From Acidimicrobiia bacterium (GTDB taxonomy: Bacteria; Actinomycetota; Acidimicrobiia; IMCC26256; JAENVU01), in assembly GCA_009694415.1 (NCBI GenBank), contig SHUZ01000001.1:1-52426 (forward strand): DNA of 52,426 bases. The letters are read 5' to 3'. Each line of letters begins with the position of its first letter. Position 1 is the first letter of the stretch. Position numbers and translations under genes: made by a program. The notes under the pieces were generated by a model. That model ran no database searches, had not been told where the DNA came from, and was given only the letters and a program-made list of their open reading frames with translations. Shown here piece by piece: positions 8,044-46,921 of this stretch.

Positions 8044-8652
8044 ATGGCAACGAGTGACCAGAAAAAATACGGGGTTTGGGTAGTGGTCGCTCTAGGTGTC
8101 GTTCTTGTGGCGGTACTTGGGTTCGCGCTGTTCCTATTGTTCGCCCGTGGTGGGGGAGACGAGGGGGACAAGAACGCGCAGCAGTGGGCGACTGATGTTT
8201 GTGAATCTGCAAATACGTGGTTTGACGACGTCACCTCCCTCGACGGTTTCATGAATGATCCGAACCCAGGTTCAAATGGGTTTAGCGATGCAATCGCTAA
8301 GAAACTCGCCGATATTCAAATAGCAACGAAAGATTTGGCTACTCAACTAGAAGATGTCGGCCTCCCAGATACTGAAAAGGGGCGACAAACTGAAGACCGA
8401 GTTCGTGAATCGATTGCATCTGTTGAGAAACGCGTGAAGACCGCCGAGCGCGCGATCGCTCGCGCGAAAAAGGGTGGCGTCTTAGCGATTGTCACCGCGG
8501 TCGCCACGATTGTCACTCAAATTTCCGAGGTTCGAACTGAGGTTGAGGATGCAGTCAAAGAACTCAGCGACATAGATGCAGGCGGAGAAATATCGCGGGC
8601 GTTCGAGTCATCTGCTGCATGTAAAGACCTGCGTTCTGCCGTAGGTGGATGA
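8044..8652 (+). CDS. Hypothetical single-pass membrane-anchored protein with helical ectodomain
   Basis: 202-aa ORF. N-terminal TM segment VWVVVALGVVLVAVLGFALFLLF is followed by a charged helical region with two Cys. The 8220-8400 stretch is locally AT-richer. Confidence 0.6.
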   Translation: MATSDQKKYGVWVVVALGVVLVAVLGFALFLLFARGGGDEGDKNAQQWATDVCESANTWFDDVTSLDGFMNDPNPGSNGFSDAIAKKLADIQIATKDLATQLEDVGLPDTEKGRQTEDRVRESIASVEKRVKTAERAIARAKKGGVLAIVTAVATIVTQISEVRTEVEDAVKELSDIDAGGEISRAFESSAACKDLRSAVGG

Positions 8653-9593
8653 CCGTTGACGTGATCGAAATTTCTGAGCCGGTTGACGGTGCACCCGTTA
8701 ATCCTCAATTGCTTGGGGTGACGAATCTTGTTCGCCGGATCACCGATCTATGCCTTGGCGCACTGAGTGTCGCAGCGATAGCGAGTGTCGATGCGATCGA
8801 GCGCTTCGTTCCCGCTGAACCCGGTGAGGAGTCGCACTCATCACCGACCATCTTCAGCTATCTACCTGGTGCGCTGATTGGCTTCGGTGTTGCAACACAA
8901 AGGCAGTTGTTGCGCGCTACGTCCGCAGGCGAACGCGTAGCCGTTACGATGTCGAGTCTCGCTGCACGCGCGCCGCTGATTGGTGTTCCGCTGCGCGACG
9001 TAGAGGGGTATCTCGCACACTGGGCAGATCGTGGCGAGGCAGAGCAGATACGTAGCCGGGCGTTGCTTGCTGAATTTGTGCGACGCCTTGCCCCTGAGGT
9101 GGCGACAGCCGTAGTCGAGAAATTGGATCTGGCTGAATTGGTCGAGCAAATGCCGATGGATGCGATCGTGGCAAGCCTCGACATCGATGCGCTATTGGTA
9201 CATGTGGATGTAGATGCAATTGTCGCGCGCGTGGATATTCCGGCGTTGTTGGATCGCGTGGATGTAGATGCAATTGTCGCGCGCGTGGATATTCCGGCGT
9301 TGTTGGATCGCGTGGATATAGATGCGATTGTCGGGCGCGTCGATGTAAGCGCAATAGTCGACCGACTCGATCTTGGCCCGGTGGTTACCGGGGTTCTCGA
9401 TCAAGTTGATATCGGAGCAATCGTTCGAGAGTCGACCGGTTCGATTACGGGAGGCATCGTGAACGGTGGCCGCGTCACTGCGATGAAAGTCGATGTGTTC
9501 GTCGCTCGCGTATCGGACAAAGTTTTGTTTCGCAAGAAAGCTCGTGACTTGTCGCTATTTCAAGAGACCAGCGACGAGATAGCCACGCCATGA
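8649..9593 (+). CDS. Hypothetical protein with C-terminal array of 9-residue (V/I/L)D(V/I)xA(I/L)(V/L)xR repeats
   Basis: 314-aa ORF. It has ATGA overlaps with both neighbours. About 11 nonapeptide units span LDLAELVEQ..VDIGAIVRE. Confidence 0.65.
   Translation: MTVDVIEISEPVDGAPVNPQLLGVTNLVRRITDLCLGALSVAAIASVDAIERFVPAEPGEESHSSPTIFSYLPGALIGFGVATQRQLLRATSAGERVAVTMSSLAARAPLIGVPLRDVEGYLAHWADRGEAEQIRSRALLAEFVRRLAPEVATAVVEKLDLAELVEQMPMDAIVASLDIDALLVHVDVDAIVARVDIPALLDRVDVDAIVARVDIPALLDRVDIDAIVGRVDVSAIVDRLDLGPVVTGVLDQVDIGAIVRESTGSITGGIVNGGRVTAMKVDVFVARVSDKVLFRKKARDLSLFQETSDEIATP
9204..9311 (+). repeat. Perfect 54-bp tandem duplication (2 units) inside the nonapeptide-repeat CDS
   Basis: gtggatgtagatgcaattgtcgcgcgcgtggatattccggcgttgttggatcgc occurs at 9204-9257 and again, identical, at 9258-9311. 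Confidence 0.95.
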
Positions 9594-10072
9594 CCGAGCC
9601 GCTGCGTTCGACAATCCGAAACGATCAAGCACGCGCGCTTCAACGAAGCCGGGCCGGTTTTGTCAGCAGGGTGTTGGCCGATACAATCGATTGGGTGGTA
9701 GTCGTCGCTATTTTTTCGAGCCTCCACTTTGCGGTCGAACTCGCGCGATGGATTATCACAAGTGGAACTTTTTCCATTCAGCCGCCGAAGTTCGCAGTGT
9801 TATTGGGACTGGAATGGTTGATCCTCGTCATCTATCTGACGATTGGATGGGGCGGCAATGGGAGAACGATCGGCAAGAGCTTCGCCGGGTTGCGCGTCGT
9901 TCGCTCGGATGGTTCGGACCTCGGAGCTCGCCGCGGGTTTTTTCGTGCATTGGTTTGCGCCACTTTCTGGCCATGGGTTCTACTCTGGAGTCTTGTGAGC
10001 AGATCCAACTCCGGATTGCACGACATCTTGTTGCGCACGGCAGTTATCTATGACTGGTCCTCAGATAGCTGA
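9590..10072 (+). CDS. RDD family membrane protein
   Basis: 160-aa ORF. R..D..D spacing with TM helices, GRTIGKSFAGLRVVRSDG, and C-terminal GLHDILLRTAVI. Confidence 0.8.
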   Translation: MTEPLRSTIRNDQARALQRSRAGFVSRVLADTIDWVVVVAIFSSLHFAVELARWIITSGTFSIQPPKFAVLLGLEWLILVIYLTIGWGGNGRTIGKSFAGLRVVRSDGSDLGARRGFFRALVCATFWPWVLLWSLVSRSNSGLHDILLRTAVIYDWSSDS

Positions 10073-10758: not shown

Positions 10759-11772
10759 GTGACGGATGTTGGTGCGCGACGTATGAGCCTGCCGAAGCGT
10801 TGGCTCTACGTGCTTGCGACGACGAATCCTCCCGAGGGTGACCTAGACCCGATTACAAAGTGGCTCTGGATCACGCGCGCTGGCGTGCTGCCGATGACGC
10901 TTGTCTCGGCTGGCCTTGCGGGTCTCCTTGCTGTGTTCATGGACGCAAGCGTCAATTGGCTGTATTTCGCCGTTGCCGCTTTCGGTCTCGTGCTTTCGCA
11001 TATGGCTAACAACATCATGAACGACATCTTCGATCTTGAAGTTGGAACCGACACTGCCGACTACCCCCGCAACCTTTATTCGCCGCATCCAGTGATTTCG
11101 GGAGCGCTCACGCGTAATCGCCTAGCGATGTACGGACTCGTAGTAAATGTTGCGTGCCTTGCAATCATGATTTATCTAACAGCCGAACGCGGTTGGCCCA
11201 TCGTTGCCTTCGCTTTAGGCGGGTTCTTCTTGTCGACCGCGTACACGGCACCGCCGCTTCGATTGAAGAAGCATGGTCTGGGAGAGCCCACCGTGATCGT
11301 CGTTTGGGGACCGCTGATGGTCGGTGGCGTCTACTTCGCTGCCACAGGTTCGATTACTTGGGCAGTTATAGCGGCATCGCTTCCTTACGCGATCCTTTGC
11401 ACGACAGTGCTTATGGGTAAGCACATCGATAAGGCTCCTTGGGATGGCCCTGCAGGAACGCGCACGCTTCCGGTCATTCTTGGAGACAATGTGGCGCGCC
11501 AAGTGACACGCGGCATGTTCATCGCTTTCTACGCGCTTATTGCAATTCTTGTCGTTGTCCAGATTCTTCCCGTGTTCACACTTCTCGTCGCATTCTCGTA
11601 TCCGATATTCATTCGGGTTTGGAAGACCTACGGCGAACCCAAGCCGGCTGAATCGCCAATGCCAAATCCGGTGTGGCCACTTTGGTTCGCGCCCCACTCG
11701 TTCCTATTGACTCGACGCGCGGGCGGGCTTCTTATTCTTGGCATGGTCGCCGGCGTCATTCTGGGTTGGTAG
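10759..11772 (+). CDS. UbiA-family aromatic prenyltransferase (MenA-like)
   Basis: 337-aa ORF, polytopic. It carries the Asp-rich motif NNIMNDIFDLEVGTD. Confidence 0.8.
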   Translation: MTDVGARRMSLPKRWLYVLATTNPPEGDLDPITKWLWITRAGVLPMTLVSAGLAGLLAVFMDASVNWLYFAVAAFGLVLSHMANNIMNDIFDLEVGTDTADYPRNLYSPHPVISGALTRNRLAMYGLVVNVACLAIMIYLTAERGWPIVAFALGGFFLSTAYTAPPLRLKKHGLGEPTVIVVWGPLMVGGVYFAATGSITWAVIAASLPYAILCTTVLMGKHIDKAPWDGPAGTRTLPVILGDNVARQVTRGMFIAFYALIAILVVVQILPVFTLLVAFSYPIFIRVWKTYGEPKPAESPMPNPVWPLWFAPHSFLLTRRAGGLLILGMVAGVILGW

Positions 11773-11826
11773 ACCCACCGTTTTTTTGTGCCATAGCCGC
11801 GCAGATTCGTCGCGCTTTTTGGAGGG

Positions 11827-12195
11827 ATGATGCCCGAGAGCACCATGTTCGAAAGCACGATGCAGAACTTCCCGCTCACTATCGGGATGATGTTCAGACA
11901 CGGTCGCTCTGTTTACCCAACCAGCGAAGTTGTCACATATGAAGGCGACCACGTCCGTCGTGCGACCTACTCGGAGGTAGCGGACAGGTCCGATCGCCTT
12001 GCTGCGGCGCTTACGCCGCTTGGAGTGTCCGGCGAAACTGCGTCGGAATTCGAATCGGTGCACATCTTCATCGTCACAGGTTCCGGTGATCCTGGAGAAT
12101 TACGCGCAGCGACGAATGCGCGAATCGGGCCGAGCTCTACGGCCGTCGACGGTCTCCTGAGGCGCGCGAGGCACCAGGTCTCCTCGCCCGGGTGA
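11827..12195 (+). pseudogene. 5' stump of a medium/long-chain fatty-acid-CoA ligase gene (first ~68 codons native, then non-ligase read-through to TGA)
   Basis: GGAGGG RBS followed by ATG. MMPESTMFESTMQNFPLTIGMMFRHGRSVYPTSEVVTYEGDHVRRATYSEVADRSDRLAAALTPLGVSGE matches the N-terminus of ~540-aa FACS enzymes. No AMP-binding core follows. Confidence 0.8.
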
Positions 12196-12920
12196 GCAGC
12201 ACTTCCGGATCCGAAGCGGCCGACCCGCCCGACCTGCTCGGCCTCGCCGTGCGTGAGAACGCCACCTGGTGCGACGTCGTGTGCCAGCTGCACCGGATCG
12301 CGCCCCAGGCTGACGCGGATCTGTGGTGGTCGACCCGACGAACCCCGAACCTCTACCCGGACGCCATCACCCTCACACCGGCGGTCTCCGAGTTCGACCT
12401 GCTCGGCCGCATCGACGACGCGACGGGCGCGTCCGTCAAGGACTCGTTCGCACTGCTCGATCTCGCACCCCACGGCTACGAGCCGTTGTTCGACGCGACC
12501 TGGATCGCCCGCCCCCCGGCGACCGCACCGAGAGAGGTCCACGCGGGTTTCGACACCGTTGGCGACAAGTTCAGCTTCTTCGCGTGGCAGCACGCCTGGG
12601 GCGGACCACCGGACCTGCTCCTCCCCTCGCTGCTCAAAGTGGCGGGGGTGACCGTCGTCGGCGCGCGCTCGGCCGACAGATTCACCGACGGCGCGATCCT
12701 GCACCACACGCGGATCGGCGGCGTCGAGGTGCTCGGGATCTCGAACGCGTTCGGCGACCTCGCCGCGCTCGCCGACGTCGCCGCCGCCCGGTTCCCGACC
12801 GCGTGGCTCGTCGGGTACGAACACGCCGACGGCTTGGCCGCGACCCTGGCCCACGGATTCCGCGCGATCGGTCCCCTGCGCGTCTGGGGGCGCGACCTCC
12901 GGCCGTCCAGCGCTGCCTGA
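12192..12920 (+). CDS. Orphan 242-aa hypothetical protein on compositionally foreign DNA (possibly GNAT-like C-terminus)
   Basis: 35 of the first 40 codons end in G/C, against 28/40 in the ligase stump. G+C at 12241-12360 is 84/120. GTG start overlaps the stump stop (GTGA). The C-terminus LVGYEHADGLAATLAHGFRAIGPLRVW resembles GNAT ends. The other frames and strand give Arg/Ser-rich shadow ORFs. Confidence 0.7.
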   Translation: MSSTSGSEAADPPDLLGLAVRENATWCDVVCQLHRIAPQADADLWWSTRRTPNLYPDAITLTPAVSEFDLLGRIDDATGASVKDSFALLDLAPHGYEPLFDATWIARPPATAPREVHAGFDTVGDKFSFFAWQHAWGGPPDLLLPSLLKVAGVTVVGARSADRFTDGAILHHTRIGGVEVLGISNAFGDLAALADVAAARFPTAWLVGYEHADGLAATLAHGFRAIGPLRVWGRDLRPSSAA

Positions 12921-12951
12921 GACGGCTCGGCTCACGCGAGCACGTGCCTAG

Positions 12952-13140
12952 GCCCGGTTTCGGGAGCAGTCATCCGACCCGTTGCGCATCCTCGGCAGCA
13001 AGATCGCGAAGTGGCAACTTCCAAAACGATGGGCATTCATCGACGAGATACCCAAGACGAGCGTAGGAAAGTTCGACAAGAAAGTTCTTCGCGCGCGTTT
13101 TGGCGGCGGCGAACTCGATGTCGAGACCTTGTCTAGTTAG
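12952..13140 (+). pseudogene. 3' fragment of the same fatty-acid-CoA ligase gene (last ~55 codons, no start)
   Basis: My translation is ..[66 protein letters not shown] is the ANL-superfamily C-terminal (A10) motif. An in-frame TAG lies at 12949. Confidence 0.8.
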
Positions 13141-14365
13141 CCCGGAAGCCTTCGTACTTCCGCAATTCGCGACGCGCGATCTGGCGCATGTGCACCTCGT
13201 CCGGGCCATCCACCAGATGCAGCGTGCGTGCATGTGCGTACATGTCTGCGAGCGGCCAGTCTTGGCTTACCCCAGCTCCGCCGAATACTTGGATCGCCCG
13301 GTCGATGACCGTCGTAGCCGTCCGAGCGGCCACGACCTTGATGGCGCCAATCTCGAAACGCGCGCCCTTGTTACCAACCGTATCCATGAGCCACGCGGCC
13401 TTCATCGTGAGCAACCTTGCTTGCTCGATCATGATGCGGCTCTCGGCGATTGAAGCGCCGATCACACCCTGGTCTGCGAGGGGAGAACCGAATGCGACTC
13501 GCATCTGGACACGCGCACAAGTGAGTTCCAAGGCCCGTTCGGCAAGACCGATCGCGCGCATGCAGTGGTGAATGCGGCCGGGGCCTAAACGCGCCTGTGC
13601 CATCGCGAACCCGTTACCTTCGCCTCCCAAAATATTGCCAGCAGGAAGGCGTACGTTTTGGAACAACGTTTCGGCATGGCCGCCGCCGCTGCTGTGGCCG
13701 AAGACGGTGAGTGCCCGTTCTATGGAGACGCCTGGAGCATCCATAGGAACGAGGATCATCGAATGGCGGTGGTATGGATCAGCATCAGGGTCTGAGACGC
13801 CCATGAGGATGGCGACCTTGCAACGCTTCGACATGGCGCCGCTCGTGAACCACTTGTGCGCATTAACTACGTAGTCATCGCCATCACGGGTTATCCGACT
13901 CTGGATATTGGTCGCGTCGGAGCTTGCAACCCACGGTTCGGTCATTGCGAAACAAGATCGGATCTCGCCTTCGATTAGCGGGACGAGCCATGCGTCTTGC
14001 TGTTCGGGGGTACCAAACTCCGCAAGAATTTCCATGTTCCCTGTGTCGGGCGCGGCGCAGTTGGTCGCTTCGGACGTGAGCAAACTACGTCCCATGATTT
14101 CGCACAAAGGCGCATAATCGAGATTGGTCAGACCCGCGCCCCACCGCTCATTGGGCAGAAATAGATTCCAGAGCCCACGGGCGCGCGCCTCGTCCTTGAG
14201 ATCCTCCATGATCGGCGCGTACGAATGCGGATCACCGGACGCTTCGATCTGCGCGAAGTAAGTAGGTGTCGCGGGTTCGATTGTCTCTGTAACGAACGCG
14301 AGCAATCGTTCGCGTAGTTCTTCTGCGCGTTGGCTCAGGGCGAAATCCATGTCATCCTCCGACAT
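13133..14365 (-). CDS. Acyl-CoA dehydrogenase (ACAD10/11 / FadE2-like)
   Basis: 410-aa ORF with ACAD N, middle and C domains, e.g. [16 protein letters not shown] and [15 protein letters not shown]. Confidence 0.9.
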
Positions 14366-37368: not shown

Positions 37369-38970
37369 ATGGAATGGAACTTTGCGGATCTCTTTGAGGG
37401 TGTTGCCGACGCTGTCGGGAAGCGCACTGCTCTCGTCTGTGGCGAACGCAGGCTCACCTACAGCGAACTTGACGAGCGTGCGACACGGCTTGCCAACCAC
37501 TTGGCCGCACACGGAGTTCAGCCAGGCCAACATGTCGGGATATACGCGTACAACGGTTCAGAGTGGATGGAGGCGATGTTCGCGGCTTGGAAGATCCGAG
37601 CCGTGCCGATCAACGTCAACTATCGCTATGTCGAAGCGGAGCTCGCATATCTATTCGGCAACGCAGACCTTGTTGCCGTTATTCACGGACGGGAATTCAT
37701 CCCGCGTATAGCGGCCATTCTCTCCGAATGTCCGAAGTTGAAGGTGTTGGTGTCTATCGGAGATGACTCCGACGAGGACCTCGCGTTGATTGGTGCAGTC
37801 GATTATGAGGAAGCACTTGGGGCTGCGTCTGCGGTGCGCGACTTTGGCGCGCGAGACGCGGGCGACCAGTACATGCTCTATACCGGCGGAACAACCGGGA
37901 TGCCCAAGGGTGTGATGTGGCGTCAGGATGACTTCTTCTTCTCAACGGTAGGGGCGATCATGGTGATGGGAGGCGAGATGTACTCGTCACCCGAGGCTGT
38001 GGTGAAGGCAGCTGAAGCAGGCGGCGGCATTGTTGCCTTCCCGGTCGCTCCGTTGATGCACGGCGCCGCTCAATGGGTCGCACTGGTTATGTTGCTGCAG
38101 GGCAACGTCGTGGTTTTGACATCGCAGAAACGAATGGATCCCCACGCTGTTTGGGCGACCGTCGAACGCGAAAAGGTGATGTCGATGAGCCTTGTTGGTG
38201 ACGCGATGGCGCGTCCGTTGATTGAGGCACTCGATGATCCCGATACCGAATATGACCTATCCGGTTTTTTGGTCCTCGGTTCCGGTGGCGCAATCTTGTC
38301 ACCCGCAGTCAAAGAGGAGATCGCCGCGAAACTTCCGAACGTCATGATCGTTGACTCACTCGGCGCGTCCGAGACGGGGTACCAGGGTGCTGTTGCTGGC
38401 TCGGATGCCGAGGGGAAGCCCCGTTTTGCAATGGGTGAGCACACGACCGTTATTGATGACGAGGGTCGGGCCGTTGAACCTGGATCCGGCGTCATTGGGC
38501 ACTTGGCGCGGTCGGGTTACATGCCGATCGGCTATTACAAAGATCCCGTCAAGACGGCGGAGACGTTTGTCGAGCTCAACGGGCGTCGGTTTTCGATGCC
38601 GGGTGACATGGCGCGAGTGGAGGCCGATGGCACGATCACGTTGCTCGGCCGCGGTTCGGTGAGCATCAACTCGGGTGGCGAAAAGATTTTCCCAGAAGAA
38701 GTTGAAATCGCGCTGAAGAGTCATCCGCAGGTATTCGACGTTGTAGTTGTGGGCGTTCCCGATGAACGTTGGGGTGAACGCGTTGTTGCGGTTATCCAGC
38801 CGCGCGGTGATGCAACTCCGACCGTTGATGAGTTGGCTGCGCACGCGCGACAGTTGATCGCTGGGTACAAAGTTCCGCGTGAAGTGCACCTCGTCCACGA
38901 GATTGTGCGATCGCCCTCCGGCAAAGCCGATTATCGATGGGCAAAAGCGTACGTCGCGGGGAACGAGTAG
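37369..38970 (+). CDS. Acyl-CoA synthetase (AMP-forming, ANL superfamily)
   Basis: ATG 37369 lies after a GGAG (the ORF track uses TTG 37354). Motifs: YTGGTTGMPKG, GDMARVEADG, PSGKADY. Confidence 0.9.
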   Translation: MEWNFADLFEGVADAVGKRTALVCGERRLTYSELDERATRLANHLAAHGVQPGQHVGIYAYNGSEWMEAMFAAWKIRAVPINVNYRYVEAELAYLFGNADLVAVIHGREFIPRIAAILSECPKLKVLVSIGDDSDEDLALIGAVDYEEALGAASAVRDFGARDAGDQYMLYTGGTTGMPKGVMWRQDDFFFSTVGAIMVMGGEMYSSPEAVVKAAEAGGGIVAFPVAPLMHGAAQWVALVMLLQGNVVVLTSQKRMDPHAVWATVEREKVMSMSLVGDAMARPLIEALDDPDTEYDLSGFLVLGSGGAILSPAVKEEIAAKLPNVMIVDSLGASETGYQGAVAGSDAEGKPRFAMGEHTTVIDDEGRAVEPGSGVIGHLARSGYMPIGYYKDPVKTAETFVELNGRRFSMPGDMARVEADGTITLLGRGSVSINSGGEKIFPEEVEIALKSHPQVFDVVVVGVPDERWGERVVAVIQPRGDATPTVDELAAHARQLIAGYKVPREVHLVHEIVRSPSGKADYRWAKAYVAGNE

Positions 38971-45449: not shown

Positions 45450-46921
45450 CGCAAGACGGTTTGGCTGACAACGTCGTAATTGAGTACGGGGTTGCTTTTC
45501 ATGCGACGGCGCGGCCCGAAAAAGTTGCGATTGTGTTTGGCGATCGACGTATCACATATGGCGAACTCGATCACGAGATCAACCGCGCAGCTCGCTTCCT
45601 TGCAGACAAAAAAGTTGGTCCTGGTTGCAGGCTTGGGATTGCATTGCGCAACCGTCCCGAATGGATAATCGCGGCGTTTGCCGCGGCGCGCCTCGGTGCG
45701 CAGGTCGTGCCTATTCCTTACGGCACCACGCCCGACGAATTGGATTACTTCTGCACCGATGGCGAGGTTGAGTACTTGCTAAATGAAGCGGGTCTCGATT
45801 CGTTTATTGCAGAAGCCTCGACTCGCTCTGGTGATGCATTGCCAGAAGCCGCACCCGACTACATCGCGCTGCGCGCGTATACGAGCGGGACTACTGGCGT
45901 TCCAAAGGCCGTCTTGCGGCCAGAGGTTGCACCGCATCTCTCGATCCAGGGTCTAGTTGGCTACTACACCGCATATGGGCTCGATGGTCCCGATGAAGTC
46001 AACGTGACCGGGTCGCCGATGTATCACATTGCAGGTTTTAGCGGGCCGCACACTGCGCTGTTGTTGGGGCACACAACAGTGATCCTGGACCACTTCGATG
46101 CAGGGGAGTGGCTGCAAGCTATCGAGACCGAGCGAGTTACCTACGCGATTACAGCACCCGTGCATCTCTATCGCGTAATGCAACTCTCCGATGACGTGCG
46201 TGCCGCGGCTGACGTCTCGAGCATCAAGCGCATCATGCATGGGTCCGCGCCGTGTGCCCCGAGTCTCAAGCGACAAGTGATCGATTTTTTCCCCGTCGGC
46301 GCGGTATGGGAGGCCTACGGTGGAACGGAGACCATGGGAACGATCATCAGCTCGGAAGAATGGCTCACGCACCCCGGTAGTGTCGGTCGTCCGGCGCCCG
46401 GGTCGGCAATCGCGATCATGGATGATGAGGGGAACGAGTTGCCGACAGGTGATGTTGGTCTCGTTTACATCGGCTCGGAGTGGGGGCTGGGGTTCCGCTA
46501 CGCCGGTCCAGCGGAACATACCGAGGCTGTCTACCGCGGGGATCTCGCGACTCTCGGTGATCTCGGATACGTAAACGATGACGGCTATTTGTTCATCGTG
46601 GACCGCCGCAAAGACATGGTGATCACCGGCGGAGCGAATGTTTATCCAGCGGAAGTTGAAGCGGTTCTCGTCGAGCATCCCAATATCGATGAAGTCGCGG
46701 TGATCGGTATGCCCGACGACGAGTACGGCGAGATTGTTACGGCGGTAGTAGTCGCACACGGCGAGTTGAATAGTGAAGAAGTGATCGCATTCGCGCGTGA
46801 GCATCTTGTTGCGTACAAGAGTCCGCGGCGTGTCGAGTTTGTCGATGTGCTGCCCCGCGATCAGATGGGGAAGGTACTCAAGCGCGTCCTGCGTGAACTC
46901 GGCACGTTCGAGGCCCTATAA
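45446..46921 (+). CDS. Acyl-CoA synthetase (AMP-forming)
   Basis: ATG 45446 forms an ATGA overlap with the SDR stop. Motifs: YTSGTTGVPKA, GDLGYVNDDG. The last 6 codons and the TAA stop lie in repeat copy D. Confidence 0.9.
   Translation: MTQDGLADNVVIEYGVAFHATARPEKVAIVFGDRRITYGELDHEINRAARFLADKKVGPGCRLGIALRNRPEWIIAAFAAARLGAQVVPIPYGTTPDELDYFCTDGEVEYLLNEAGLDSFIAEASTRSGDALPEAAPDYIALRAYTSGTTGVPKAVLRPEVAPHLSIQGLVGYYTAYGLDGPDEVNVTGSPMYHIAGFSGPHTALLLGHTTVILDHFDAGEWLQAIETERVTYAITAPVHLYRVMQLSDDVRAAADVSSIKRIMHGSAPCAPSLKRQVIDFFPVGAVWEAYGGTETMGTIISSEEWLTHPGSVGRPAPGSAIAIMDDEGNELPTGDVGLVYIGSEWGLGFRYAGPAEHTEAVYRGDLATLGDLGYVNDDGYLFIVDRRKDMVITGGANVYPAEVEAVLVEHPNIDEVAVIGMPDDEYGEIVTAVVVAHGELNSEEVIAFAREHLVAYKSPRRVEFVDVLPRDQMGKVLKRVLRELGTFEAL

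Follow-up and report, generated by a model that had tools for sequence, protein, structure and literature searches.

Resident DNA can be replaced by foreign DNA during natural transformation, through the homology-facilitated illegitimate recombination (HFIR) and double illegitimate recombination described in Acinetobacter and Streptococcus. Most documented horizontal acquisitions have a vehicle, such as a phage, a plasmid, an integrase or a transposase; capture of DNA at chromosome breaks without any such element has been shown in the laboratory and has been proposed, from genome statistics, to aid transfer between distant lineages. In Sinorhizobium meliloti, nonhomologous end joining (NHEJ) put a heterologous linear fragment, and sometimes two in tandem, into a break made by I-SceI, with terminal deletions (Dupuy et al. 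2019, PMC6379672). In Streptomyces ambofaciens, NHEJ repair was accompanied by insertions of 30 bp to 18.8 kb, among them pieces of 42 and 83 bp from near the break; a single end-joining event typically leaves patchwork joints of several fragments with short local filler, and the authors proposed that NHEJ insertion fosters horizontal transfer (Hoff et al. 2018, PMC5869714). Natural scars that are clean and whose ancestral state is known have seldom been pointed out. Here we describe a candidate for such a scar at positions 11827-13140, plus strand, of a 52,426-nt stretch of contig SHUZ01000001.1 (assembly GCA_009694415.1, Acidimicrobiia bacterium), the whole of which is referred to below as the window (overall G+C 58.9%). 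At this locus, a fatty-acid-CoA ligase gene has lost ~400 of its 550 codons, and in the place of its core lies a G+C-rich block that carries an intact gene of 242 codons. The reading that we favour, with a probability of roughly 0.6, is that the ligase was destroyed when a break in the chromosome underwent non-homologous repair and foreign DNA was captured.

Ligase remnants and the block between them

From 26 intact syntenic ligases, a profile was constructed and run on all six frames of positions 11700-13300. It identifies three collinear pieces in one frame, at positions 3-66, 132-158 (window 12037-12117) and 501-549 of 550, and no ligase homology inside the block in any frame. A tblastn search started with the ligase of the closest related locus, L083, aligns residues 4-69 with 11842-12039 (70% identity, E = 3.5e-23), residues 131-161 with 12034-12126 (61% identity, E = 1.4e-6) and residues 502-547 with 12991-13128 (72% identity, E = 9.3e-18). 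The original prediction, made from the sequence without database searches, had recognised both ends of the ligase and placed boundaries at ~12035, ~12125 and ~12955, each of which proves correct within a few bases. The anatomy of the locus is as follows (ORF, open reading frame; GC3, G+C at third codon positions; cargo, the 242-codon gene of the block):

11827-12195, plus: chimeric remnant ORF of 122 codons, consisting of ligase piece 1, ligase piece 2 and 22 apparently foreign codons; TGA stop at 12193-12195
11827-12036, plus: ligase piece 1, codons ~1-69 (profile positions 3-66), 70% identical to the L083 ligase; G+C 0.58
12034-12039, plus: in-frame deletion junction with ~63 codons lost (L083 ~69/70 to 131); exact base ambiguous within GAA ACT
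12037-12126, plus: ligase piece 2, L083 residues ~132-161, 90 bp, in frame with piece 1; G+C 0.54, host-like
12127-12955, plus: high-G+C, putatively foreign block of ~830 bp; left edge sharp at 12126/12127, right edge within 12921-12985, best guess ~12955
12127-12191, plus: putatively foreign 5' flank of the cargo gene; GC3 0.905 in the remnant frame and ~0.67 (hand count) in that of the cargo gene
12192-12920, plus: putatively foreign cargo gene, 242 codons, intact, beginning with a GTG that overlaps the remnant's TGA
12956-13140, plus: ligase piece 3, L083 residues ~497-548 and the stop codon, including PKTSVGKFDKK; homology secure from 12985

The NCBIfam models of long-chain fatty-acid-CoA ligases match the same two ends, positions 2-58 in ORF 11827-12195 and positions 486-528 of 531 in ORF 12982-13140, with scores of 31-50 bits against cut-offs of 476-852. 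The Pfam matches at these ends, to AMP-binding and AMP-binding_C, are weaker (PF00501 reaches 20.4 bits on residues 29-68, below its cut-off of 29.9). As had been predicted, the AMP-binding core is missing: the P-loop (A3 motif (T/S)SG(T/S)TGxPKG, which reads YTSGTTGNPKG in the relatives) is present in no frame of 11700-13300, and elsewhere in the window it occurs only in paralogs that are 27% identical to the lost ligase. A relocated copy of the core was also sought within the window and was not found, only the same paralogs being detected. The A10 lysine motif PKTSVGKFDKK in piece 3 is identical to that of the relatives and is severed from any start codon by an upstream in-frame TAG (12949-12951), which separates piece 3 from pieces 1 and 2, encoded in the same absolute frame.

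The replacement of the core had been described as a single lesion; there are two, an in-frame loss of ~63 codons at 12036/12037 and the replacement of ~335 codons (L083 ~162 to ~496, with the P-loop), and between them lies the 90-bp ligase fragment 12037-12126. The match of this fragment is real (window VHIFIVTGSGDPGELRAATNARI aligns with L083 VHTFVVTGSGDPGALAEATSARI, a score reached by 0 of 1000 shuffles); L083 reads VAAELTTVHTFVVTGSGDPGALAEATSARI-VTYEDL where the window has TASEFESVHIFIVTGSGDPGELRAATNARI-GPSSTAV. On the other side of the block, an edge at ~12955 is suggested by the profile envelope and by a weak alignment (REQSSDP versus RKEGSDVD). The remnants are free of frameshifts and stops across ~100 and ~60 codons and are 61-72% identical to L083. 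The locus thus resembles FadD-type ligases (PRK06187, PRK05620; PF00501, PF13193) over ~69 N-terminal, 30 internal and ~50 C-terminal residues and in its synteny, and differs from them in that ~400 of 550 codons, including the P-loop, are missing; to judge by these comparisons, the former ligase is a pseudogene and not a short member of the family.

The G+C content of the block (12125-12955) is 0.718, compared to 0.587 in the rest of the window. Measured against 800-nt segments outside the feature (mean 0.587, sd 0.019, maximum 0.636), this amounts to z = 7.0, and the 21 G+C-richest 800-nt segments of the contig all overlap the block, which agrees with the original prediction that the block is rich in G+C and forms the sharpest break in the window. 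In a 300-nt sliding scan, the values are 0.54-0.58 on either side and 0.70-0.74 between ~12100 and 13000; at the left edge, G+C steps from 0.54 in ligase piece 2 to 0.75 in the next 65 nt. The ORF of the block has a GC3 of 0.897, versus 0.53-0.69 in every other long ORF of the window. The tetranucleotide distance of the block to the whole-window profile is the largest in the window (z = 10.4), and once base composition is normalised, the block no longer deviates significantly (z = -1.7), so that the anomaly is essentially a signal of G+C and GC3. Given that G+C and GC3 deviate and that the homologs of the cargo gene are found in high-G+C Actinomycetota, the block is best interpreted as foreign DNA.

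For the ancestral state of the locus, ~160 related loci were fetched from genome and metagenome collections, ~80 of them anchored on the upstream UbiA gene and ~80 on the downstream acyl-CoA dehydrogenase (ACAD) gene. The features that flank the former ligase are:

10759-11772, plus: UbiA-family prenyltransferase gene, the upstream neighbour and host anchor for the synteny comparison
11762-11787, plus: terminator-like hairpin with a T-run after UbiA (consensus scan only)
11820-11832, plus: GGAGGG motif resembling a Shine-Dalgarno sequence, ahead of the ATG ATG at which the former ligase began (read from the sequence, with a presumed function)
13133-14365, minus: ACAD gene, convergent, host anchor, with an 8-bp overlap between its 3' end and the ligase stop

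In 26 loci, a complete ligase gene of 544-568 codons (~1.65 kb) is located directly downstream of UbiA, in several cases with a convergent ACAD gene beyond it. The order UbiA-ligase-ACAD is common to L005, L006, L083, L096, L131 and L146, and the adjacency of UbiA and the ligase is seen in ~25 more loci. The closest relative, L083, shares with the window the order UbiA, ligase, ACAD, glyoxalase, with 81%, 88% and 71% identity for UbiA, ACAD and glyoxalase, respectively; the best ACAD matches are metagenome-assembled genomes labelled Acidimicrobiia or Actinomycetes. A homolog of the cargo gene is present at this place in 0 of the ~80 UbiA-anchored and ~80 ACAD-anchored loci. The expectation that related genomes carry an intact ligase of about 1.6 kb is thereby confirmed, and the proposal that a deletion within the ligase was combined with the acquisition of foreign DNA is in line with both the composition of the block and the intact ligases of the relatives.

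Several side observations concern these relatives. In L005 (4117-5013) and L006 (3332-4399), a luciferase-like oxidoreductase gene is located between ACAD and the ligase; it is absent from the window, where the stops of ligase and ACAD share 8 bp, and from L083, which has ~66 bp between the two genes. The L005 record (CAMDSG010000053.1) is titled "Bifidobacterium breve", a label that looks wrong given that the locus is syntenic with Acidimicrobiia-type loci and shares 70-79% protein identity with them. The low-G+C members of the clade are the window (58.9%) and L005, L095, L096, L097 and L099 (55-57%), compared to 66-74% in the other syntenic loci; L083 has 70% G+C, and the 72% of the block is normal for the wider clade. 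From this distribution, it seems that G+C has dropped markedly in some freshwater lineages of the clade.

The exact 242-residue protein was identified on four other contigs, two from ENA (39.8 kb and 40.4 kb) and two from Logan, L001 (SRR8561391) and L002 (SRR8561390), all with the gene order UbiA, 121-aa remnant, 242-aa gene, ACAD. The two Logan runs are winter samples from Lake Baikal, taken at depths of 1250 m and 1350 m (PMC7678222); the host is an uncultured Acidimicrobiia-like population of deep Lake Baikal water. The alignments with the window are free of gaps and extend over 10,678 nt for L001, with 9 single-nucleotide polymorphisms (SNPs), and over 5,114 nt for L002, with 3 SNPs; neither contig differs from the window at the junctions, and the two SNPs within the feature (12093 and 12311) both fall on third codon positions. 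The original prediction had left open an assembly artefact, in which reads of a high-G+C organism would have been wrongly joined into the ligase of a 59%-G+C organism. The window is indeed a metagenome contig, and one ENA contig of 6,102 bp (ERZ1305449) ends at about window position 12186, ~60 bp inside the block with the left junction still included, where the assembly graph may branch or lose coverage. Against a chimera, the three junctions are reproduced base for base in two run-by-run Logan assemblies made with different software from different samples, the 39.8-kb and 40.4-kb ENA contigs show the same gene order, the SNPs elsewhere demonstrate that the contigs are not copies of one sequence, and a chimera would have had to re-enter one and the same gene, without a change of frame, 830 bp further on. 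A chimeric origin is therefore extremely improbable, and the arrangement is real. The end of the ERZ1305449 contig could reflect a drop of coverage in high-G+C sequence or a branch of the graph that would mean strain heterogeneity.

Exact look-ups of the UbiA and ACAD proteins returned only insertion-bearing contigs, so no intact-ligase allele was detected in the same population, and all contigs found to carry an identical UbiA or ACAD share the arrangement. This result bears on the possibility of an origin in another lineage, from which the mosaic would have reached the present genome by homologous recombination through the ligase flanks. Homologous recombination is common between related freshwater strains, but the ligase pieces adjoining the block resemble the host in G+C (0.54-0.58) and in GC3, the mosaic is found in no other locus of the ~160 fetched, and it is on every contig with the identical anchors. 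We consider such an allele replacement highly improbable.

The cargo gene and its family

The view of the block as foreign stood up to scrutiny; what had been overlooked is that it encodes an intact, conserved gene in sense orientation, coupled by stop and start codons to the remnant ORF. This gene is the only ORF with homologs in the block. A search of 5.8 billion proteins yielded 370 significant homologs of the 242-residue protein among the candidates scored. The nearest of these (55-63% identity, 225-239 aa) come from metagenome contigs, the best one showing 62% protein and ~71% DNA identity; the next tier (40-47%) includes proteins from Micromonospora, Nonomuraea, Streptomyces, Agromyces, Actinoplanes and Solirubrobacteraceae. 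The family, with at least 370 members, mainly from Actinomycetota, and weak relatives on Rhizobium plasmids, has no Pfam or NCBIfam model: no Pfam or NCBIfam family matches the cargo protein at E <= 1, and a precomputed Pfam domain is assigned to 0 of the 120 homologs listed. In an alignment of 43 sequences, the cargo protein keeps 20 of 20 invariant residues and 62 of 63 columns with at least 80% conservation, which indicates that the gene is intact. The invariant residues of the family include C27, W45, the motif G79-x-S81-x-K83-D84-S85 and a C-terminal GPLRVW motif.

Searching PDB sequences with a profile produced only a DinB-like match, which is not significant (E = 0.11). An AlphaFold2 model computed from the 43-sequence alignment (pLDDT 94.5, pTM 0.89) is more informative. 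A Foldseek search of PDB started with this model yields 118 matches at E <= 1e-3, and the 50 best are almost entirely GNAT-fold proteins, with two-domain GNATs at the top (E = 2e-7 to 1e-5 for the best matches, probability 1.00, TM 0.45-0.57, identity 10-15%). Over most of its length, the predicted fold resembles those of the two-lobed GNATs VipF (6wqb/7wx7), 3ec4, 4ius and WecD (2fs5) and of N-myristoyltransferases; the protein differs from them in the modest TM-scores, the identity of only 10-15% and the lack of a Pfam or NCBIfam match. Since the sequence-profile search of PDB gave no significant match, the GNAT kinship is visible by fold comparison only. Inspection by eye of the sequence that follows the strand formed by residues 178-187 revealed no canonical acetyl-CoA motif A (Q/R-x-x-G-x-G/A), and one UniRef entry of a homolog is named GNAT acetyltransferase. 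According to the model, the cargo is a divergent double-GNAT protein that belongs to no curated family by sequence profile, and it probably functions as an acyl-CoA-dependent acyltransferase, a putative assignment that follows the predicted fold.

The neighbourhoods of eight homologous loci are ordinary and varied chromosomal ones; some homologs adjoin RecG and ribosomal protein L28, others fatty-acid synthesis genes. No mobility genes are present at these eight loci and their flanks are not shared. In two loci, L163 (6001-7146) and L166 (6001-7184), which are the closest homologs with long sequence context, a canonical GNAT gene comes immediately after the double-GNAT gene (with a 4-bp overlap in L166); further downstream are a pair of genes for ECF sigma factor and zf-HC2 anti-sigma factor and a gene of the acetyl-CoA hydrolase type (AcetylCoA_hyd_C). 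This arrangement may be a conserved module that hints at the function of the family, of which the window would have captured only the first gene. The DNA similarity of the block to the eight loci (67-71%) is confined to 12222-12896, within the coding sequence (CDS); it stops at the CDS edges at all eight, and the cluster look-up gave no organism names, so that neither identifies a donor. In plasmid collections, the matches are ~40% identical on actinomycete megaplasmids and ~26-28% identical on Rhizobium plasmids, and no phage copies were found.

Other identities considered for the cargo were rejected. It has no match in PADLOC, and its PHROG match is insignificant, which argues against a defence-system or phage protein. 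It is not a marker or engineered cassette either, as the ORF has no relative above 62% among the 5.8 billion proteins and the locus is present in wild lake metagenomes. Several 6-bp palindromes (GAATTC, TTCGAA, GAGCTC, GTCGAC, CCCGGG, CCTAGG) are clustered near the junctions, at 12040-12195 and 12948-12953, so that sites for EcoRI, SacI, SalI, SmaI and AvrII occur there; chance is favoured over a cloning scar, given the wild origin and the lack of a known marker.

Proposed origin and expression of the mosaic

The original prediction reported no transposase, integrase, terminal inverted repeat (TIR) or target-site duplication (TSD), and this is confirmed. No inverted or direct repeat pairs the edges of the block, mobility genes including transposases and integrases are missing from the block and from ~10 kb on either side, and the 52 kb contain no tRNA. 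The region 3' of the cargo ORF has no attC-like structure (fold z = 0.6 compared to shuffled sequences) and no Rfam match, and no RNA element or structured recombination site was detected at the edges of the block, where the flanks fold no better than shuffled sequences. A 5-nt TCGGG near both edges was examined as a candidate TSD and dismissed, being expected by chance within the 60-nt zone of uncertainty. An insertion sequence (IS), a transposon or a miniature inverted-repeat transposable element (MITE) would be recognised by TIR, TSD and transposase, an integron cassette by attC and a nearby integrase, and a genomic island by a tRNA att site and an integrase; none of these is present, and the block carries a single gene in 830 bp. 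A mobile element (IS or MITE, integron cassette or small integrative element) could still have brought in the GNAT-like gene, with adjacent deletions following: a promoterless, sense-oriented single-gene cargo recalls a gene cassette, and IS elements can generate adjacent deletions. Given that every hallmark, from transposase or integrase to TIR, TSD, tRNA and attC, is lacking, that the eight homologous loci contain no mobility genes, that no phage copies were found and that the plasmid copies are only ~40% identical, we regard this scenario as improbable.

What remains fits a scar of end joining: sequence was lost at both ends of a break (~63 and ~335 codons), and the insert shares no homology with the target. 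These two features, together with the lack of a recombinase site, the small size of the cargo and the local scrap, are the reasons to favour end joining or illegitimate recombination. The mechanism had been called unrecognised; the replacement itself stands, and its anatomy fits capture by end joining or illegitimate recombination (PMC6379672, PMC5869714). Under the favoured reading, a chromosome break would have occurred in the FadD-type ligase gene and would have been processed by end joining or by microhomology-mediated illegitimate recombination. Resection on both sides would have brought the left end back to codon ~69 and the right end to codon ~497; the 90-bp scrap of local ligase sequence would have been retained, or captured again, between the left end and the foreign fragment; and the break would have been sealed around an ~830-bp fragment from an unsampled high-G+C actinobacterium. 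The fragment would comprise one complete two-lobed GNAT gene and maybe the last 22 codons of the gene upstream of it in the donor. Because GC3 has not been ameliorated and the remnants contain no frameshift or stop, the event looks recent.

The configuration of the left side suggests how the cargo might be expressed. Both left joints are in frame, and in the sequence GTGA, the GTG of the cargo (12192-12194) overlaps the TGA of the remnant (12193-12195). Ribosomes that start at the old ligase start would read the 122-codon chimeric ORF and stop at the TGA that overlaps the GTG of the cargo. The terminator-like hairpin after UbiA implies that the ligase locus has expression signals of its own; the promoterless cargo would borrow the ligase promoter for its transcription, and termination-reinitiation would serve for its translation. 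The GTG of the cargo lacks a Shine-Dalgarno motif upstream, which makes termination-reinitiation the simplest route to its translation; we infer, from the sequence, that the cargo is expressed through coupling to the remnant ORF. The segment 12127-12191 is possibly the tail of the upstream gene of the donor, in which case the GTGA overlap would be native to the donor. The hint is weak (chance ~0.05) and comes from GC3 alone, since the upstream gene in the closest homologs is divergent (RidA-like) or unrelated.

A stepwise history departs from the favoured reading in timing only, not in the kind of process. In this case, at least two unrelated events would have taken place: the ligase would have died first, for instance by the 63-codon deletion, its core would have been replaced later, and the in-frame geometry would be a coincidence. 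The two separate gaps are compatible with such a course, two in-frame joints have a chance of ~0.11, and the two paralogous ligases of the window could make the loss tolerable. By contrast, the remnants contain neither frameshifts nor stops, and their identity to L083 (61-72%) is what might be expected of a live gene; with GC3 at 0.90, the insert shows no amelioration either. All changes therefore look recent and close in time, and a patchwork of joints with local filler is the usual outcome of one end-joining event. Taken together, these observations make the stepwise history unlikely, albeit the most serious of the alternatives.

Several points count against the favoured capture at a break, or limit its details. 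The two lesions may have arisen one after the other, independently, in a gene that was no longer functional. Blunt joints cannot be told from microhomology joints at this locus, since the DNA match to the best relative of the insert (~71%) is confined to the CDS, and the right junction is located only within ~60 bp. Ku and LigD may be lacking in many streamlined freshwater actinobacteria. With regard to expression, two in-frame joints would arise by chance in about 1 of 9 cases, so selection for the coupling is only suggested; the cargo has no Shine-Dalgarno motif, and an alternative start is possible at GTG 12249, the annotated start of the homolog P0011; its expression is a prediction from the sequence. 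A more specific version of the break-capture reading is tentative: one break would have been patched by the 90-bp scrap together with 830 bp of environmental DNA from a distant high-G+C organism, and the product would have survived because the in-frame joints plugged the donor GTGA into the promoter, ribosome-binding site and frame of the ligase, with instant expression. If true, this would be a natural, population-level case of the NHEJ-driven transfer that so far has been shown only in the laboratory, and it would itself account for the way in which such cargo comes to be expressed.

Some features of the rest of the window can be mentioned in this context. Two AMP-binding acyl-CoA ligase paralogs, ~27% identical to the lost ligase, are encoded at 37447-38967 and 45524-46894, next to ECH, ACAD, desaturase, P450 and MFS genes, in a region rich in lipid metabolism genes. 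This richness, including the two paralogous ligases, may buffer the loss of the ligase. The second most deviant tetranucleotide segment of the window, much weaker than the block at 12127-12955, starts at 9101 (~8900-9900) and shows strong positive GC skew (up to 0.26) over the ORF 8649-9593, which has no Pfam match.

Comparison with described capture events

The locus resembles HFIR and double illegitimate recombination in that foreign DNA replaces resident DNA with a net deletion and the junctions fall at no homology or microhomology. It differs from HFIR, which requires one homologous anchor, none being detectable here. The similarity to the NHEJ capture of S. meliloti and S. ambofaciens extends further: there is no homology, recombinase site or target duplication, deletions occurred at both ends, and, as in Streptomyces, a short extra piece from near the break is present, of 90 bp here compared to 42 and 83 bp there. 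The difference is that those breaks were I-SceI cuts made in the laboratory, whereas here a natural allele is observed and the pathway is read from its scar.

The locus does not overturn the current understanding; it is a tidy example of a fairly ordinary footprint of transfer without a mobile element. It offers a comparison of the states before and after the event (with ~26 intact ligases), a single-gene cargo that has not been ameliorated, a hypothesis of expression through in-frame fusion, and a pointer to a sizeable actinomycete family of predicted two-lobed GNATs that has no Pfam or NCBIfam model. Compared to the systems described so far, the mechanism is of a known kind, and the locus is a new natural instance of it, not a new phenomenon.

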